Positions 1,076 to 9,270 of a DNA stretch of 64,000 nt are shown one piece after another. Below the pieces are notes generated by a model. The model was not told where the DNA came from. It did no database searches and saw only the letters and a list, made by a program, of their open reading frames with translations. Both the position numbers and the translations under genes were made by a program. The first letter of the stretch is position 1; the number at the start of each line of letters is the position of its first letter. The stretch comes from Neophaeotheca triangularis (lineage: Eukaryota), in NCBI GenBank assembly GCA_054600435.1, contig BAAIJX010000020.1:186001-250000 (forward strand). The letters run 5' to 3'.

Positions 1076-1183
1076 TCAACGTGACCTCGAAGAGTCTCCG
1101 CTGTGCATCTGTGGCTAGTCTGTTAGCACTTAGTCTTCATGATGCCATTGGCATCTTACTTGCATCAGAGCGAATCTCCCTGT

Positions 1184-2032
1184 CTACTTTCCCTCGGCGT
1201 CCCTTCTCTTATTCCACTCACAGCACTCAGAGAACGCAACGCCTTTTCCCCCAAAGATATCCAAAGCACTTCCAATGGTAAGATCAACCTTGCCCCCCGA
1301 CAGCCGCTCAACAAGTTCCAGATCCTGCAAATTCCTTCCACCACCAGCGTAAGTCACAGGGATACTACAAATCTCTGCCAAAAATCCAACGAGCTCCTCA
1401 TCGATACCCTTCTGCAAACCCTCGGCGTCCGCGGCGTGGATGAGGAACTCGCTACAGTAGGGCTCCAAGAGCGCGATATTGTCCTTGGTGATTTCGAAGT
1501 CCGTGATGGTCTGCCATTTGTCCATGGCCACTCGCCAGCCGTTACCCACGCGACGGCAGCTGAGGTCGATGACGAGTTGGGAAGTTTCGCCACCGAGGTT
1601 TTCGAGTACGGATTGGAGGCGTGGGAGGGAGAAGGTCCCAGAGGGGAAGAGGAAAGATGTTATTATGACCTACTGCTCAGCGTTAGAGTCATTCGTTAAG
1701 CAAAGATGGAAGAGGATGCAAAGGTAGCGTACCCTTTCAGCACCTGCATCGATCCAGTCTTTGGCATTGCTGTCTTTGATGCCGCCGCCGACTTGCAAGC
1801 CTTGGGGCCATGCTGATAGTGCTTCTTTCGCTGCCGTGTCGTTTCCGGGGCCTAACATAATGACATGACCGCCTCTTAGCTCATTGAGGCGGTAGAGATC
1901 GGCATAGTATGCGGATGGATGCTCGGATGTGTAGTTGGTCTTGAGCTCTGCCGCGACTGTAGTCAAGGAGCCTCCGACAATCTGCTTCACAGAGCCTGCG
2001 TGCAAGTCTATACACGGCCTGAAGCGCGTCAT
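1184..2032 (-). CDS. HIS6: ProFAR isomerase (HisA/His6, histidine biosynthesis); exons 2032-1733 and 1669-1184
   Basis: MTRFRPCIDLHAGSVKQIVGG, GGHVIMLG, LQVGGGI, EFLIHAADAEGLQKGIDEELV, VTYAGG and DLTIGSALDIFGG motifs. Intron 1732-1670 (GTACGC...CTAAC...TAG) joins the two ORFs in frame. Confidence 0.95.
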
Positions 2033-2197
2033 CTTGAACACTGCAGCGATCTATACTAGCCCTGAGGTCAAAGATGGCTTGTCGTGGAGAGGATCAGATC
2101 GCGTGAAGTCGAGCCCACGCGAATACTTAGTCAGCTTTCGAGATTTCCGCCAAGAATCCAACTCCAACCTCACTTCACAGCAACGTATCCGACAACA

Positions 2198-3181
2198 ATG
2201 GCCAATCATCTTGGAAAACGTAAAAGGCGCGCGGAATCACAGAAGCCCGCGAAAGAAGAATCGCCCTCGAGTTCAGGAGACGATGCAGCGATCCGAGCAG
2301 CTTTTCAACGAGCTTTCGAGGCCAAATTCAACCCGGTAGAGGTGGAGACGAAACCCGCTGCAGAGGCTGGAAGAGTGCTGGAAAATGACCGAAGCGACGA
2401 AGAAGACTCGGATGACGACTGGAGTGGCTTCTCCGGGGACGAGGAGGACGATAATGAGGACGAGGACGAGACTACCGAGGGCGTCGAGACCGTAGAATTC
2501 GGAGCGCCCCGTACCATAGACCGCGAACAAGAGAAAGCGGAAAAGAAAGCATTCATGGTAGGCAGTTTATTTTACATTATCCACCACGATCCCACTAACC
2601 TTCCCGACCACCAGTCCTCCAAACCCCCCAGCTCCGACCGCAATCCCACCACTACCAGCACAAGCAAGCGCAAACCCACGCAATCCGCCGACGGTAACGA
2701 AGACGGCAATTCCGAAGCCACGAACTTGAAACATGACCTCGACCTCCAGCGCTTACTGAAAGAAGCCCACCTTCTCGACCCCGCGACAACGTCCGCGACA
2801 GCCTCGACAGCCCCTGAAGGCAAAGCGCGGCTCAAAGCGCTCGATTCCCGCATCCTCGGGCTTGGGGCGAAGAAGTCGGCGCTCGAGCAGGAGCGCATGC
2901 CGATTGCGCATCGCAAGGGGATGGTGCAGAGGGGTGGGGAGAGGGAGGCCAAGAGAAGGAAAGAGGCGCAAGAGAATGGTGTTATTCTGGAGAGACCGCG
3001 TAAAGGAGCGGCGGTGGGGAAGAAGGCTGGTAGTGCTGGGCGCGATGGGAAGAGGGATATGGTGGATGGGCCAAGTGTAGGCAAATTTAGGAATGGGATG
3101 TTGACGCTGAGTAAGAATGATGTGAAGAGCATTGAGGGGAGGAAGGGCGGTGGAGGTGGGAAGAAGAAGGGAAAGAGGTGA
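2198..3181 (+). CDS. FAF1: Faf1-like 40S ribosome biogenesis / pre-rRNA processing protein; intron 2558-2614
   Basis: Acidic N-terminal half, then NLKHDLDLQRLLKEAHLL, ERMPIAHRKGM, RRKEAQENGVILE and GPSVGKFRNGMLTLSKNDV, which match my recollection of Faf1. The 57-nt intron is GTAGGC...ACTAAC...CAG. Confidence 0.8.
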   Translation: MANHLGKRKRRAESQKPAKEESPSSSGDDAAIRAAFQRAFEAKFNPVEVETKPAAEAGRVLENDRSDEEDSDDDWSGFSGDEEDDNEDEDETTEGVETVEFGAPRTIDREQEKAEKKAFMVGSLFYIIHHDPTNLPDHQSSKPPSSDRNPTTTSTSKRKPTQSADGNEDGNSEATNLKHDLDLQRLLKEAHLLDPATTSATASTAPEGKARLKALDSRILGLGAKKSALEQERMPIAHRKGMVQRGGEREAKRRKEAQENGVILERPRKGAAVGKKAGSAGRDGKRDMVDGPSVGKFRNGMLTLSKNDVKSIEGRKGGGGGKKKGKR

Positions 3182-3430
3182 GGGGATGTTGGGGTGTTCC
3201 AGTTTGTATAGAGTGTGGGCGTGGTACGGTTTTGATAATGCAAACGCAACCTCCCGCGAGATTGGACGATAAACCTGCCGTGACACCTGCCTGCTAGCAT
3301 CGCCGCATGCGACTGGTGTTACCTACAGTACAGCTACTTGATCGCCATTCCACATGTCCATCGAGCGAACTTAATCCTTCTCACCAAGCTCCCGACCAAG
3401 ACAAAGGCCGAGCTCTCAAGCATGAAAAAT

Positions 3431-4293
3431 AAATGTAAATGGTGACCTGTCAGGAAAGCCCCGAACCCTCCAGGACAAGCCGACACGGGGGCCAAAAACT
3501 TGCTTGAAAACGAGGTCATTGCCACTGAACCGAGCCCTCCCAGACAAACCGACCCGGAGGCCAGGCGTTTGCTCAAGGAGGACGAAGTTCAGTACCACGG
3601 CGTCTCCCGTAAAGGTTAGAGTGCTTTGAATTCATCATTCAGGTTGCGCATGCCCCAGGACCACGATGCATTTTGTTAATGAGGACTGCCGCCCCAGATA
3701 GGCCGCCAAAGAACTTCTTCCACCCGCGTGGACACTGACCCAAGCCTAGCTCGCCGACTTGGAGCGACCCCAGCTGCTGTGAGCGAGCTTTGTTTGACCT
3801 GAAGCACAGGGTTTTGCATGCTTCAGGGTAGATAGGCCGCCAGAGCTTTTCACCCTCCGGATGGTGACACTGACCCAACGCCCAGCTCGTCGACGTGGAG
3901 TGACCCTTCGTCGAAATCAATCGACACAGCCCAAGCCCAGGGTTTTGAGGGCGGGCAAATCGGGGACTTTTGCTGTTGACCTGAGCCGCGTGCCCCGAAA
4001 GCCACGGCATCTTGAGGAGCGTGGCGCAAACGCCCCTCAAGTGGTCGCAGTCCCCTCTGACGGGCTCTACCCCACCCCCCAGGCAGGATGAGGGAGCACA
4101 CTGAAAGAGGAGACCGCAGATAGTTAGTATCCAGAAGGCCGGGTCCTGTTTCGCACGTTAGCAACTTCACTGGTAATATGGTGCAGTGTGATGAAGGTGT
4201 GGTGAAGAGTGATGTCAGGGTGAGGGAAGAGGAAGGTGTAGTGGGTGAGGTGAGGTGAACGCAATGCAGATGTTAGCAGAAGGTCAGACTTAC
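3431..4293 (-). ncRNA. Candidate long structured non-coding RNA (~700 nt) downstream of a spliceosomal intron
   Basis: Many long stems whose wobble pairs are G-U only on the minus strand (e.g. 4011-4022/4030-4041, 3962-3968/4049-4055, 3798-3806/3819-3827, 3524-3530/3587-3593, 3443-3448/3513-3518). Donor GTAAGT at 4293 with acceptors at 4146 and 4101. Ends ACAUUU at 3436-3431. No convincing protein. Confidence 0.55.
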
Positions 4294-5776
4294 CAAGGAA
4301 GTCCATTGGGAGTAGGCGAAAGATCCTGGAGCTGGGCGCCTCCTTGTTGGGAGAGAGAGAAAGGGAAGAGGAAGTCGAAGAGGAGGGGAGCTCGGTTTTG
4401 TTCTTGCGAAAAGCAAGCTCGGACCACCACTTTAGGTAAGCATGCAGGAGCAGGTGACCATGGTGACGACGCTAGCGTCCTGCAAAGAGGCCTGGGCCCG
4501 TCATGGAAGGGACTAGAAGGCAGGCAGCGCAGGCAGTGAAGCGAGGAAGACGAGAAGTGAAGGCTACGGTTAGACATAGGCGATTTGGAAGCTTGTTAGG
4601 TGTAGTATCAGAAGTGATGCGGGACTCAGAACAGTACTCATACCAACTGCAGGGGCCGGCTACAAGATTACGGTTCTTTGGGGGAAAGGGATAGAGCACA
4701 TAAGGCATGTCCTTCACGAATCACAGTGGTCCAGTGAAGAGATGCACGCAGCACAGCAATCCCCAACCTTTGGCTTTCACGAGTTACCAGCGGCGAACAT
4801 ACTACATACTAGCCTTGCTTCATTCTCAATAGCTTCTCCCTCCCAAGGTGGTGAGCTTTGAAGGCCGCTGGGATCGCCGCCGGGACTGGTAGGTTGATGA
4901 GCATACTTAGCAGGTCTTTGGATGGGGACGCACGGCGCAATCGAAACATGTATACTTGAAATGTACGCAGCAGTTCTCTTACTCGCAACGACTACTCGCG
5001 AGCAACCCTCACTGACATCTCGCAGGGCATATGTTATCAACTAGATACAGCTAGTAGGCAGCCTGACTCCTTGAAGTAGCGTGGAGCCAACTTTTTGGCG
5101 TTAAAAAATAGCACTCACGGATAGAAGACTTCTACGGCAGTATTAGATTTAAGTACGTCAGCTGCATTGAAGATCGGTTCCGCAGGTGAGCGCGAGACTC
5201 GGCCCATCCGCTACTGAGTATTTCGAATTCGAGCTTCAACCCAGCTTGCTCGCCTTCATGAACCTGTACTTCTTCGACTTCGCTGCGCTTCCACTTTGGG
5301 CCGGAATTTGATTTTGAAGAATTTGCAGAAGCTCCTCTTCACGGTACCAACAGTTCGCGCTCTCCTGTCAAGGGCTCCTCCAGTCAAGGCAGGCCGAGCC
5401 CGATTTTCCTATTTCTGGAGCGTTTGAGGGTAGCAAAAGCATCGCAGAGGCTTAAGCGCAGGATAAGATACCCAATATGCAATTACTCGGCCGCTCAAGT
5501 TGATAGATTGCAACACATGGGTGATGTGAGGAGAGGGTTGGATGGGATGTCGTCGAAGTGAAGCTCCGATATCGGCGTGATCAATACGGCTTCCCAAATC
5601 TACAACGACTTTGGGCAGCTAATGAACTTTTCTACAACAAACGAGCGAGAGATAACGTCAAGGTATTTCTACTACCAGAGCAATGAAAAACGGCGCCAGC
5701 TAAAGCGTGGGAAACACACTGCGGCTCAGGTAGCATTTCTCTTAGAAACGTGACCCTCACATAGAACGATTCACTC

Positions 5777-6757
5777 TCACCCGCTCCACCACGCTCCACC
5801 CGCCTCGAATGCCCCCTGCAAACTCCCAAACCGTTGCCACACTAGAGCAGCCAGTCCAACACCCACCGGCACCGCCCCCATGACTGCCATCTTGCCCACC
5901 ATCTTCCCAAATCCCACCCACCACAATATGCCGTGAAAGTCGACAAACTGCTTCGAATCATTAACCATCGGCAGCGCCTCTCCCTCCCCTTGCGGCTTCT
6001 CAACCTTCAAAAACCCGCACAGCGGCGCCCACCCATCCTGCACTCTAAACTCCAACAGCCTCTCCTTCGGCACAACTCTCCGAACATGCTCATAATGCGC
6101 CTCAAAAGCCCTTCCCACCGCCTCACTCTCCTCAAACTCCCCCTGGGCAATCGGCATGTTAACGCCAAAAGCAGGCGGCATCATCAAACGCGCAAACCGC
6201 CACCAAGGCCCCACGACCGCGCCGTCCCAGCGCGCTATCAGGGGCCAGCCCCACCATTGCGCAACTCGCCCAATACTCGCCTGCATGCTCTTGCGCCACT
6301 TACCGACCTCCCGCGTCTGCAACACCACCAGTGCGTCGGGATAAGCCGCCACCAGCTCTTCCACGAACATACAGCACGGCACATCGGCCACGGCGTCGTA
6401 GTTGCCGAGTAGTTTGTCAAACTCCTCCCGGCCCCAGGGTTTCATGAGCGCGCTCCCGCTGTTGTCGTTGTGGTATTTGGCTCGCAGGGCTTCGCTCCAG
6501 GCTTCAAAGTTTGTCTTTGGGGAGGAGATGGCCACCGCCATGTGGTAGGGTTTGTAGCCTAGTTGTTGGAGGGCGGTGAAGAGGGTCATGGTCCCTGTGC
6601 GTGAAAGGCCGAGGCAAAGAACGCGCATCGGGACTGTACGGGTTCCGGGGTGGGAGTCGATGAGGCGGTGCGTGGTGGGGTGGGGGGTTAGGGTATACGG
6701 TTCGGTCGTCTTGCGGGGGTCGGTCGTAGAGAGGAGGGTGTGGGTGGGGTTGGCCAT
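5777..6757 (-). CDS. P-loop sulfotransferase-like protein (Sulfotransfer_4-type) with a C-terminal hydrophobic segment
   Basis: MRVLCLGLSRTGTMTLFTALQQLGYKPYHM, YDAVADVP, AAYPDALVVLQTR and VPKERLLEFRVQDGWAPLCGFL are typical of this fungal family. Intronless, 326 aa. Confidence 0.88.
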   Translation of the reverse strand: MANPTHTLLSTTDPRKTTEPYTLTPHPTTHRLIDSHPGTRTVPMRVLCLGLSRTGTMTLFTALQQLGYKPYHMAVAISSPKTNFEAWSEALRAKYHNDNSGSALMKPWGREEFDKLLGNYDAVADVPCCMFVEELVAAYPDALVVLQTREVGKWRKSMQASIGRVAQWWGWPLIARWDGAVVGPWWRFARLMMPPAFGVNMPIAQGEFEESEAVGRAFEAHYEHVRRVVPKERLLEFRVQDGWAPLCGFLKVEKPQGEGEALPMVNDSKQFVDFHGILWWVGFGKMVGKMAVMGAVPVGVGLAALVWQRFGSLQGAFEAGGAWWSG

Positions 6758-7404: not shown

Positions 7405-9270
7405 CTACCGCCTATACAGCTCCCTATCTCTCTCCCGTGCCGGCGGCGGACCTTGCCTTCCCCCACCACGTCTTCCAGGACTGCGACTCCGGGTTCGTTC
7501 CCGAGGAGCTTCTTGATCCCGATAAGCGCGAGGATCGAGCTCTCGACTAGCGCCCCTCGAAGGCCCACGGTCATCGTACATGTCTCTGTCCCTATCTCTG
7601 TCGCGGAAAGCTGGTCTTCGGTCGTCACCACGCACAGGAACGTCTTCGCGGTAGCCACCAGCGCGAGGTGGAGGCGGGGCGTCGGCGTCGTAATTAGGGA
7701 TGTAACTGTCTGTGTCCGCCGCGTCACGGTTGCGGCCACCTGCGCCACCTCTGTTCCCGCGGTTTGTGGGCGGAGGTTCGTCGCGGCGAGTTAGTGGAGG
7801 GCCGCTGTCGTAGCGGTGGCCGGCTCCTGGCGGGCCGCGATCGGGGTAAGGGGGTGGAGGGTAGTCTGGGCGTGCAGGTAAGGGGTGGCCACCGTTACGG
7901 GGAGGGCCTGACGGTGGGCCACGGTCAATCTGGCGCCAGCCTGGAGGTCGGCCGTCCATGCCCGGTGGTCGCGAGCCGCGGTCGTCGTAGCCGCGGTTAT
8001 CACGACGAGGAGGAGGGTCTCGGCTGCCACGGTAGCGGTCGTTGAAATTGTTGTAGTTGTACCCGTTTGAGAAGTTAGCTTGGAGGTCTTCATTGTTACC
8101 GACCGTGCCGCCTTTGGGTGCTGGAGGGAGAGCTTGCGACTTTTCTTGCCCTCGTATTCTTGAGTCGAGCTCGTGGGAGTCCTTGAATCTTGGGAGCTGT
8201 CCTGGAGGGGTTGGTTTTGGATCGATTTTGAAGTATACGTGATCAAGGGCATCGAAAGCGTTGATCCGCTCGCGCCAGTTAAGGCATAGGAGTTTCTTGA
8301 GCAGATCAAGACCTTCGCGACCCAAAGCGCGGCCGAAGCGATTGTCGATATTGCCGCTCTTCCGTGCCCAGTCTCGGTGGCCTTCGCAACCCGGCAACTC
8401 TGACCATCCTGGCATGTTGTTCTCGTTGGGCGACCCCAGCAGCTCGAAGATTCGTACACACTGGTCAACGTCTGTCCGACCCTCTAAGATAGGCTTGCGC
8501 TCGAACATCTCCGCAAACACGCATCCTACACCCCAAATGTCAATGGCGGGAGTATACTGTCTCAAGCTGAGCAGCAACTCCGGTGGCCGATACCATCTCG
8601 TCACGACCAAGCTGGTATAGTCCCTGACCGCCTTGCCATTCCCCTGACCGGGTTGTGGTGTCGGCCCATCGTAATGTCTCGCAAGCCCAAAATCCGCAAT
8701 CTGCAGCAACCCGCTGTTCGCGATTAGAATGTTCGCCGCCTTCATGTCACGATGCAGGATATGCGAGTCGTGCAGATAGCGCACGCCTTCCAGTAACTGC
8801 AGCATGTAGCACTTGACCTGACCAGGACTGAATGCACCAATATCCGGGTTGGTAAGCATACCGCTCAGATCGTGATCCATGTACGGTGTGACCATATAAA
8901 GCGTCGCTCGCTTCTTACCCCTCTTCCCCTTCTCATCTGGCGGTTGCCTTTCCACAGCCATCTCCTCCAGCGTGAGAATGTTGGGATGGCTCAGCATCTT
9001 CAACAGCTTCACCTCGCGCAGCGCTGTGATGGGAAAGCCGTCCTTTTCGTTGTGAATGATGATCTTTTTGAGTGCCATCATTTGCCCGGTGCGTTTAGAT
9101 GTGGCCTTTGACACTAGACCAAAGGTGCCCTCTCCCAGCTTTTCCTGCACCATTTGGTAGTCGTTGATGTTTGCGCTGCCACGGAAACGGCGTTGGGTAG
9201 GATCGGTCAGGTCATGTTCGGGAGTAGGGGGATGATATGCTGGGCTTTCCGAGCCGTCCACCGTCGCCAT
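7405..9270 (-). CDS. BUR1: Cyclin-dependent CTD kinase Bur1/Sgv1 (CDK9 orthologue)
   Basis: GEGTFG loop, PITALRE cyclin-binding helix, [27 protein letters not shown], and a long Arg/Asp/Pro-rich C-terminal tail. Confidence 0.93.

Follow-up and report, generated by a model that had tools for sequence, protein, structure and literature searches.

A possible U3-type box C/D RNA gene on the minus strand downstream of FAF1 in Neophaeotheca triangularis

What kind of gene, if any, lies on the minus strand beyond FAF1 in the fungus Neophaeotheca triangularis? The question concerns positions 3431-4293 of a stretch of 64,000 nucleotides (nt) of contig BAAIJX010000020.1 (assembly GCA_054600435.1), hereafter called the window. 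For this region, a first-pass annotation had proposed an unannotated RNA polymerase II (Pol II) non-coding RNA that is highly structured, lies behind an intron and is perhaps a large H/ACA-type RNA. Herein, we describe at its 3' end a candidate box C/D domain whose architecture resembles that of the 3' part of the small nucleolar RNA (snoRNA) U3. The locus may be a U3-type, probably U3-derived, non-coding gene that is not a working U3. We put this reading forward tentatively, at somewhat less than an even chance, and the case as it stands is weak and comes from one sequence. A real C/D-type RNA element nevertheless appears more likely than a chance resemblance, because a C'/D kink-turn, an adjoining helix, a strand-specific hairpin, an intron on the same strand and the lack of a coding signal are found together.

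At the curated thresholds of Rfam, no match was obtained in the 64-kb window, which thus carries no rDNA either. A permissive search of 3200-4600 yielded nine matches with an expectation value (E) of at most 10, and the best came from the fungal U3 model (Fungi_U3, RF01846), which aligned over its full length (positions 1-274) with 3693-3445 of the minus strand, scoring 25.8 bits against a gathering score of 95. The E of this match grew with the length searched, from 1.2e-4 (401 nt) through 4.2e-4 (1401 nt) to 0.019 (the complete window), and in the complete window a single further match reached E ≤ 1, with a poorer value of 0.57. The comparison with Rfam suggested in the first-pass annotation thus brought out a U3 signal, but one below the threshold, which does not make the locus a member of a known family. 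The alignment columns with high posterior probability comprised CAACCUGAAUGAUGA, which holds box C' and the 5' side of the terminal stem, UGGCAAUGA in place of box C, CCUGACAGGU, which holds box D and the 3' side of that stem, and a helix resembling U3 stem M4, formed by AGC/CUCUAACCU with GGGUUCGGG/GCU.

The two ends of the domain carry the most exact features. At 3632-3644 on the minus strand, ACCUG (3644-3640) is followed by a spacer A and by AUGAUGA (3638-3632), which has no departure from RUGAUGA; AAUGAUGA at 3639-3632 also agrees with the box C' consensus WYGATGA. At 3445-3453, CUGA (box D, 3453-3450) is followed by CAGGU (3449-3445). ACCUG and CAGGU form a terminal stem (M3) of five Watson-Crick pairs, with -5.8 kcal/mol as a duplex and -8.1 kcal/mol with 20-nt flanks, and the minimum free energy (MFE) fold of 3440-3650 contains this stem. 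Boxes RUGAUGA and CUGA joined by a terminal stem are the generic signature of box C/D RNAs. By reading, a textbook C'/D kink-turn can be drawn: the 5-bp stem is followed by a bulge of three nucleotides (AAU, made up of the spacer A and the first two letters of box C'), by G-A and A-G pairs, by a U-U pair and then by G-C. According to PMC12309372, expressed C/D snoRNAs reportedly differ from pseudogenes in having boxes free of mutations and a terminal stem that is stable.

Inside the terminal stem lies the M4-like helix, with its 5' strand at 3613-3625 (AGC, an inserted A and CUCUAACCU) and its partner GGGUUCGGG-GCU at 3468-3457. In the cmscan alignment of this single sequence, 11 of the 12 model pairs were formed, three of them G-U, and the MFE and centroid folds of the isolated 3440-3650 gave the same closure without the covariance model. 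A long hairpin (hp1, 3524-3593, minus strand) stands between the boxes resembling B and C, in the position of U3 stems M6/M8; in the U3 of Dothideomycetes, M6 is a single hairpin (PMC5832005). This 70-nt hairpin has 31 pairs, including six G-U and no A-C mismatch, and the folding z score of 3440-3650 was lower for the minus strand (-1.38) than for the plus strand (+0.44). On both grounds, the assignment of the RNA to the minus strand in the first-pass annotation is reasonable.

To judge how often such a domain turns up, we scanned both strands for RUGAUGA followed 50-350 nt on by CUGA, with at least five consecutive flanking Watson-Crick pairs. Two sites were found in the window, one being the candidate, and two in 618,489 bases of other fungal loci. 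The chance of such a site within a given 0.9-kb stretch is roughly 0.005, in line with the Infernal E-value. The second site of the window (13985-13658, minus strand) spans 328 nt with a 5-bp flanking stem, begins in coding-like sequence and looks fortuitous. Separately, a C/D-like motif of 125 nt with a 5-bp terminal stem was seen at a locus of a related fungus (L008, 4838-4962, plus strand), where it runs antisense to the interval separating the two exon matches of HIS6; this motif may be chance or a real snoRNA.

Upstream of the C/D domain, the same strand carries the signals of a spliceosomal intron. The putative intron (4101-4293, 193 nt) has GUAAGU at 4293-4288, UACUAAC at 4129-4123, a pyrimidine tract and a CAG ending at 4101, and the G|GT boundary of ATGGACTTCCTTG|GTAAGT falls at 4294|4293. 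An alternative acceptor, GCUAAC followed by an ACAG ending at 4146, lies 45 nt upstream of 4101 and leaves the frame unchanged. Reading of the sequence confirmed the single donor with two branch and acceptor sets (4146 and 4101) that had been described before. The perfect pattern GTAAGT...TACTAAC...YAG occurred once in the window, at 4293-4101, and three times in 80 FAF1-bearing fungal loci, which were taken from metagenome contigs through alignment of the FAF1 C-terminus and are distant, with FAF1 identities of 44-68%. The pattern is significant only for this small region and not at genome scale. A 43-nt run free of G and rich in C, A and U (4259-4217, minus strand; G-rich on the plus strand) lies within the putative intron and is covered by contigs of two public sequencing runs (X5 and X6).

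In Pezizomycotina, U3 genes have an intron in the vast majority of the organisms analysed, almost exclusively in the 5' half of M1 and with an average length of 92 nt, and in one Teratosphaeriaceae species a second U3 intron lies immediately before box C' (PMC5832005). An origin from a U3 gene is suggested because the layout of the candidate, with a 5' intron and a 3' C'/D domain, is that gene plan. The distance from the acceptor at 4101 to box C' is about 455 nt, compared with roughly 65 nt in the Rfam U3 consensus. We also considered a long intron from 4293 to a CAG at about 3690, which would give a U3-sized RNA; it was rejected, there being no branch-site motif upstream and no M1 in the spliced 5' end.

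The putative first exon ends in AUGGACUUCCUUG (4294-4306, minus strand), immediately before the 5' splice site. The motif recurs 73 nt upstream (4369-4385) as a direct repeat with 76% identity, within a CU-rich tract. By eye, AUGGACUUCCUUG looks like the start of the U3 consensus in Rfam; this likeness was not confirmed, as the U3 model had no match in 4090-4420 at E ≤ 10. Three further by-eye U3 5' motifs, UUCGACUUCCUC (4384-4373), AGGAUCUUUC (4330-4321) and CUGGAUACUAACUAUCUG (4133-4116), were likewise not confirmed by the model and were not used as evidence. Two other observations were made after the fact: exon 2 carries AUCCUGCC (4089-4082, minus strand), 8 nt that are identical to a motif of the 18S 5' end, and CAGGAUC (4325-4331, minus strand), upstream of exon 1, is complementary to AUCCUGCC.

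Whichever acceptor is used, a frame of about 90-105 codons starts with the ATG at 4306 and ends in a stop at 3850-3852. Could the locus be a small orphan protein gene, with an intron after codon 4, a product of about 90-105 amino acids and a structured 3' untranslated region? Both acceptors lie in the same frame 45 nt apart, the N-terminus MDFLVCSLIL is hydrophobic, and small orphan proteins are common in such fungi. We consider it improbable all the same. Pfam families were absent from the four scanned open reading frames (ORFs) of 3431-4293 and from the upstream ORF 4290-4577, the 106-amino-acid ORF had no relative among 1.84 billion representatives, and the 133-amino-acid ORF had none at E ≤ 1. 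When a codon model was trained on the 20 ORFs of at least 300 codons in the window, the candidate frames scored -0.02 to +0.01 per codon, compared with 0.29 ± 0.17 for true and -0.40 ± 0.19 for wrong frames, and no positive-scoring frame was found across 3445-4100. The ORF itself, at about 0.01 per codon, is 1.7 standard deviations below true frames. Its G+C contents at the third and second codon positions are 0.60 and 0.60, against 0.66 and 0.46 in the real ORFs of the window, and the peptide is rich in Arg, Gly and Pro with two cysteines, as expected of translated G+C-rich non-coding DNA. The peptide is thus as unrecognisable as the first-pass annotation had found it. Given this lack of a coding signal, a non-coding, intron-containing gene on the minus strand remains the best reading of the locus; the kinds of RNA originally proposed did not fare as well.

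Those kinds were a large H/ACA-type RNA and, with a pairing like the P4 helix, RNase MRP RNA. The models of RNase MRP/P, H/ACA RNAs, snR30/U17, telomerase RNA and the Afu RNAs had no match in 3200-4600, even at E ≤ 10. For RNase MRP RNA, AAAAGUCCCCG (3971-3961) resembles CR-I and can pair on paper with CGGGGCU (3463-3457) near the 3' end, and a GAAAA loop can be read at about 3855. However, in RNase MRP the P8 GARAR pentaloop should directly follow CR-I and a 3-bp P5, according to PMC13184271, whereas the nearest GAAAA loop is about 105 nt from the CR-I-like motif. The supposed CR-V, moreover, overlaps the M4-like helix of the C/D domain. The proposed pairing is a possibility on paper, and an MRP identity is not supported. 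As for an H/ACA RNA, an ACA is found by reading 10 nt beyond the terminal stem, while the hinge 3523-3511 has no H box (ANANNA). A telomerase RNA would need a template, and no exact 8-mer of a CCCTAA template was present on either strand of 3181-5800; likewise, no 9-mer with at most one mismatch was found near the locus, a TTAGGG telomere repeat being assumed for the host. RNase MRP RNA, H/ACA RNA and telomerase RNA were rejected on these model searches and motif tests, and we regard an identity with any of them as very improbable.

Nearly the whole interval had been described as nested stems, and the structures were there: every stem and splice signal listed earlier was found at its place on the minus strand. 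A three-way junction (3962-4055) is closed by GGGGACU (4055-4049) with AGUCCCC (3968-3962) and holds two hairpins, 4041-4011 and about 4008-3985, the former with 11 Watson-Crick pairs, one G-U pair and a 7-nt loop. The hairpin at 3827-3798, described as a perfect 9-bp hairpin, has its nine Watson-Crick pairs and two additional G-U pairs, giving 11 bp. UGACCU (3518-3513) and AGGUCA (3450-3445) are present, followed by ACAUUU and a U-rich tract. When compared with 200 dinucleotide shuffles each, four elements folded better than all shuffles: the 70-nt hairpin (3521-3598; -41.2 kcal/mol, z -5.26), the excised hairpin 4041-4011 (z -5.16), the three-way junction (3958-4057; -50.4 kcal/mol, z -4.12) and the excised hairpin 3827-3798 (z -5.49). 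These z scores are flattered by boundaries picked after the stems had been seen. A C-rich/G-rich hairpin at the start of exon 2 (4064-4097, minus strand) was not significant (z -0.71; 43 of 200 shuffles as good), and 150-nt sliding windows on the minus strand ranged from -3.18 to +2.13.

Several results, given in this and the following paragraphs, weigh against a U3-type gene. The whole of 3431-4100 on the minus strand folded at -271.4 kcal/mol, against -266.4 ± 6.7 kcal/mol for shuffles (z -0.74; 7 of 20 as good), and the plus strand gave z 0.01. The expectation that the RNA folds better than shuffled sequence was therefore borne out for the local elements (z -4.1 to -5.5) and contradicted for the interval as a whole, whose nesting of stems is at chance level for DNA with 57% G+C. 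The region is a few strong hairpins within sequence that folds like any DNA of that composition. Even the C/D domain at 3440-3650 was unremarkable, 22 of 200 shuffles being as good. The perfect intron pattern was seen four times against 2.25 expected per 682 kb from block shuffles, so that a chance occurrence is not rare, and the U3 score lies below what curated membership demands.

One alternative is a chance resemblance: the DNA would be ordinary, G+C-rich and intergenic or weakly transcribed, its inverted repeats few and its C/D-like motif fortuitous. Because there is one sequence and a sub-threshold match, this explanation remains substantial, although we think it unlikely. It gains from the shuffle-like fold of the whole interval, the Rfam match far below threshold with its window-scale E of 0.019, the apparently fortuitous C/D pattern at 13985-13658, the intron pattern that is not enriched over shuffles and the lack of conservation in the 80 loci searched. 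Against it, the region had been flagged without reference to U3, and within the region the match has an E of about 4e-4. The C/D pattern, the helix with 11 of 12 pairs and a canonical intron co-occur in order on one strand within 0.9 kb, for which the odds of coincidence are roughly 0.005 x 0.02 x 0.003 by our own estimates from scans and simple pairing odds. The four elements that beat all 200 shuffles also speak against chance.

The candidate lacks much of what makes a U3. In U3, the 5' domain carries boxes A' (TACTY) and A in hairpin M1, together with hairpin M2, and its pairing partners are the 5' external transcribed spacer (ETS) and the start of 18S (PMC5832005). A box A 15-mer had no match with up to three mismatches in the whole 64-kb window, and a box A scan of the 80 loci gave a single site in 618 kb that looks fortuitous. 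The 5' third of the U3 model aligned with long deletions and low posterior probability, and the model's failure to match in 4090-4420 counts on the same side. The box B-like ACGGGAGA (3603-3610, minus strand) does not keep the core AGYGA of the consensus in PMC5832005, and the box C-like AAUGACC (3514-3520, minus strand) keeps four of the seven positions of RUGAUGA; the B/C motif of U3 is thus not present as such, although a kink-turn-like pairing can be drawn by hand. Without boxes A'/A and the 5' hairpins, and with only degenerate forms of boxes B and C, the locus, as read from its sequence, is not a canonical U3, is not filed as a member of the family and cannot act as a canonical U3.

In the place of these parts, tandem duplications make up much of the interval, a feature absent from the first-pass annotation. 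Two direct-repeat units of about 135 nt (3965-3830 and 3829-3696, minus strand) have a mean column identity of 80% as reported by the repeat tool. Both end in UGGCGGCCUAUCU, and the second starts with the 3827-3798 hairpin, which alone stands out within them, the units folding like shuffles (z -0.28 and -0.48); the GAAAA loop mentioned above lies inside the first. The two 3' hairpins, hp1 (3598-3521) and hp2 (3520-3452), are copies of each other by alignment, and the 3' half of hp2 is the source of the 3' strand of the M4-like helix. As a decayed tandem copy, hp2 (3452-3520, minus strand) folded worse than shuffles (-15.7 kcal/mol, z +1.49). When hp2 was compared with the 31 pairs of hp1, 10 pairs were the same, five had a one-sided change, one was compensatory, nine were broken and six were gapped. 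This loss (9 of 25 comparable pairs broken) looks like drift and adds to the points against a selected RNA structure. Elsewhere in the window, no sequence similar to the candidate was found.

Could the locus then be a dead relic of a U3 gene, broken by insertions and tandem duplications and no longer matured into a stable small nucleolar ribonucleoprotein (snoRNP), with U3-like features that are inherited and not selected? The missing boxes A'/A and the degenerate boxes B and C, the several duplications with decaying copies, the lack of a detected counterpart in the 80 loci (by blastn, and by Rfam in 14 of them) and the few variants that break predicted pairs would all fit such an origin. U3 is also multicopy in fungi, with 310 genes in 147 genomes (PMC5832005). 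On the other hand, box C', box D, the 5-bp stem, 11 of the 12 pairs of the next helix and the intron signals are intact, yet box A can no longer be recognised. Neutral decay acting evenly would not leave just the core that binds the snoRNP proteins untouched, all the more as box A is normally the more conserved. We regard the relic as rather unlikely. The loss of box A next to an intact snoRNP core and intact intron signals leads us to favour a diverged and possibly functional U3 paralogue over the relic. Such a paralogue would make a spliced RNA of about 0.7 kb, with the C'/D module as a 3' cap and a new, duplicated and locally structured 5' domain that has another target or role; in this full form it is, on the sequence at hand, a doubtful proposal too.

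The results on conservation and expression also tell against the candidate. Searching 3400-4400 against the 80 loci with blastn returned only matches of 14-26 nt with E ≥ 0.51 (the best 26 nt, E 0.51), and Rfam at E ≤ 1 on 14 of the loci, from the 23 top-ranked, gave two unrelated weak matches and nothing U3-like. The alignment of the region downstream of FAF1 in relatives, as proposed at the outset, thus revealed no counterpart by blastn in these 80 distant loci. On these alignments, the candidate is no ancient element that the class has kept in synteny, and the compared fungi are too distant to decide more. Public sequencing runs were listed (eight from six studies, only one of them an RNA library and one possibly the source of this DNA), and four (X3-X6) were compared with the candidate. 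Eight short contigs of these four matched at 95-100% identity, with no joints and no read ends; X3-X6 have no cover at 3581-3841, and X3 none at 3453-3995, gaps that prove nothing. The one RNA-library contig (4009-4274, depth 2) is unspliced across both acceptors and lies outside the C/D domain; as it may be DNA, it speaks for neither transcription nor intron retention. Five sequence differences were seen in other runs, and three of them fall within predicted helices of the 5' part, all breaking pairs and none compensated: a difference at 4052 (contig depth 2) would turn a closing-helix G-C of the three-way junction into A-C, and those at 4074 and 4075 (one X6 contig, depth 2.5) both break pairs of the 4064-4097 hairpin. 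At such low depth, the contig differences may be errors.

The candidate lies in a gap between recognisable genes. On one side stand two genes, HIS6 on the minus strand (about 1139-2041) and FAF1/FSAF1 on the plus strand (from the ATG at 2198 to the stop at 3181), the latter with Pfam PF15375 at E 1.5e-10. A sulfotransferase (minus strand, 5777-6757; PF17784) and a Bur1-type kinase (minus strand, 7405-9270) stand on the other. From position 3181, where FAF1 ends, to position 5777, where the sulfotransferase ends, 2.6 kb of DNA contain no ORF with a Pfam family and no Rfam family at threshold. By our own count, the divergent HIS6-FAF1 pair (window 1139-3181) is kept in 48 of the 80 loci, the genes beyond FAF1 differ, and the downstream sulfotransferase was found in none; the candidate sits at this synteny break. 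Within FAF1, an in-frame stretch of 57 nt with intron signals (GTAGGC...CTAAC...CAG) was noticed at 2558-2614 on the plus strand, and the long ORF 2084-3181 reads through it; the true start of FAF1 is probably the ATG at 2198. Because the best named relatives of the kinase belong to Dothideomycetes (Acrodontium, Dothistroma, Fulvia, Teratosphaeriaceae and Cladosporium, 56-61% identity; one further relative has 76%), the host is, judged by these relatives, a fungus of that class and a poorly sampled member of it, not an Aspergillus. An Aspergillus origin, hinted at in the first-pass annotation by the mention of Afu small RNAs, is not supported by these relatives.

Taken as a U3-type gene, the locus would work as follows. 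A minus-strand, Pol II-transcribed snoRNA-type gene would start near 4310, perhaps slightly before it, and end at 3445, with a short first exon, one intron (4293-4101, or with the alternative acceptor at 4146) and a second exon of about 655 nt. The last 200 nt of exon 2 (3644-3445) would form a box C/D domain on the plan of the U3 3' domain, in which boxes C' and D are joined by the 5-bp stem, a second long-range helix lies directly inside and a long hairpin is held within. The C'/D kink-turn is predicted to bind Snu13 and then the Nop56/Nop58/fibrillarin core, and this snoRNP core would cap the 3' end against exonucleases and send the RNA to the nucleolus. In place of A'/A and the 5' hairpins, the RNA would have about 450 nt derived from tandem duplications, with three strong local structures. 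Either the whole RNA of about 0.7 kb or only its 3' part of about 200-250 nt may accumulate.

What would such a gene mean? U3 is essential for ribosome assembly. A new front end on the snoRNP-binding end of U3 would, if real, illustrate how an essential snoRNA can yield a new RNA, and the locus would then represent the first diverged U3 paralogue family in fungi. If it is a relic instead, it shows how a U3-type gene decays. A survey of 147 fungal genomes reported no families of diverged U3 paralogues and only recent, near-identical duplications (PMC5832005), and none of the papers listed in our literature search for a described U3-like or diverged U3 RNA in fungi uses the term 'U3-like'.

Among known systems, generic box C/D snoRNAs have in common with the candidate a canonical box C, a canonical box D and a terminal stem. 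They differ from the candidate in that its C'-to-D distance of 189 nt is about twice the usual one and in that its box-adjacent sequences pair with each other and are not free guides. Long RNAs with a 3' snoRNP module are another point of comparison, such as vertebrate telomerase RNA (H/ACA), trypanosome telomerase RNA (C/D) and small nucleolar long non-coding RNAs (sno-lncRNAs). The candidate would resemble them as an RNA of about 0.7 kb stabilised by a 3' snoRNP, if the whole of exon 2 accumulates, and unlike telomerase RNAs it has no template sequence. PMC2780460 describes, in Neurospora, non-coding snoRNA host genes with alternative 3' splice sites and one exon-encoded snoRNA; the candidate would be similar to these clusters in having a host-like transcript, an intron, alternative acceptors and short ORFs only.

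Fungal U3 (RF01846) offers the closest set of likenesses, along with plain differences. The candidate has no A'/A, no M1/M2 and no recognisable domain for pairing with 18S or the 5' ETS. Its putative intron lies 455 nt upstream of box C' with no recognisable M1 around it, an intron in M1 being usual, though not universal, for U3 in Pezizomycotina. Other features are shared. Like the U3 genes of Pezizomycotina, the candidate would be a gene of its own whose putative spliceosomal intron sits close to the 5' end, and its U3-matching part is about 250 nt long. In both, boxes C' and D are joined by a terminal stem with a second helix directly inside it, a long hairpin stands between the B-like and C-like boxes, and a second hairpin precedes the closing helix.

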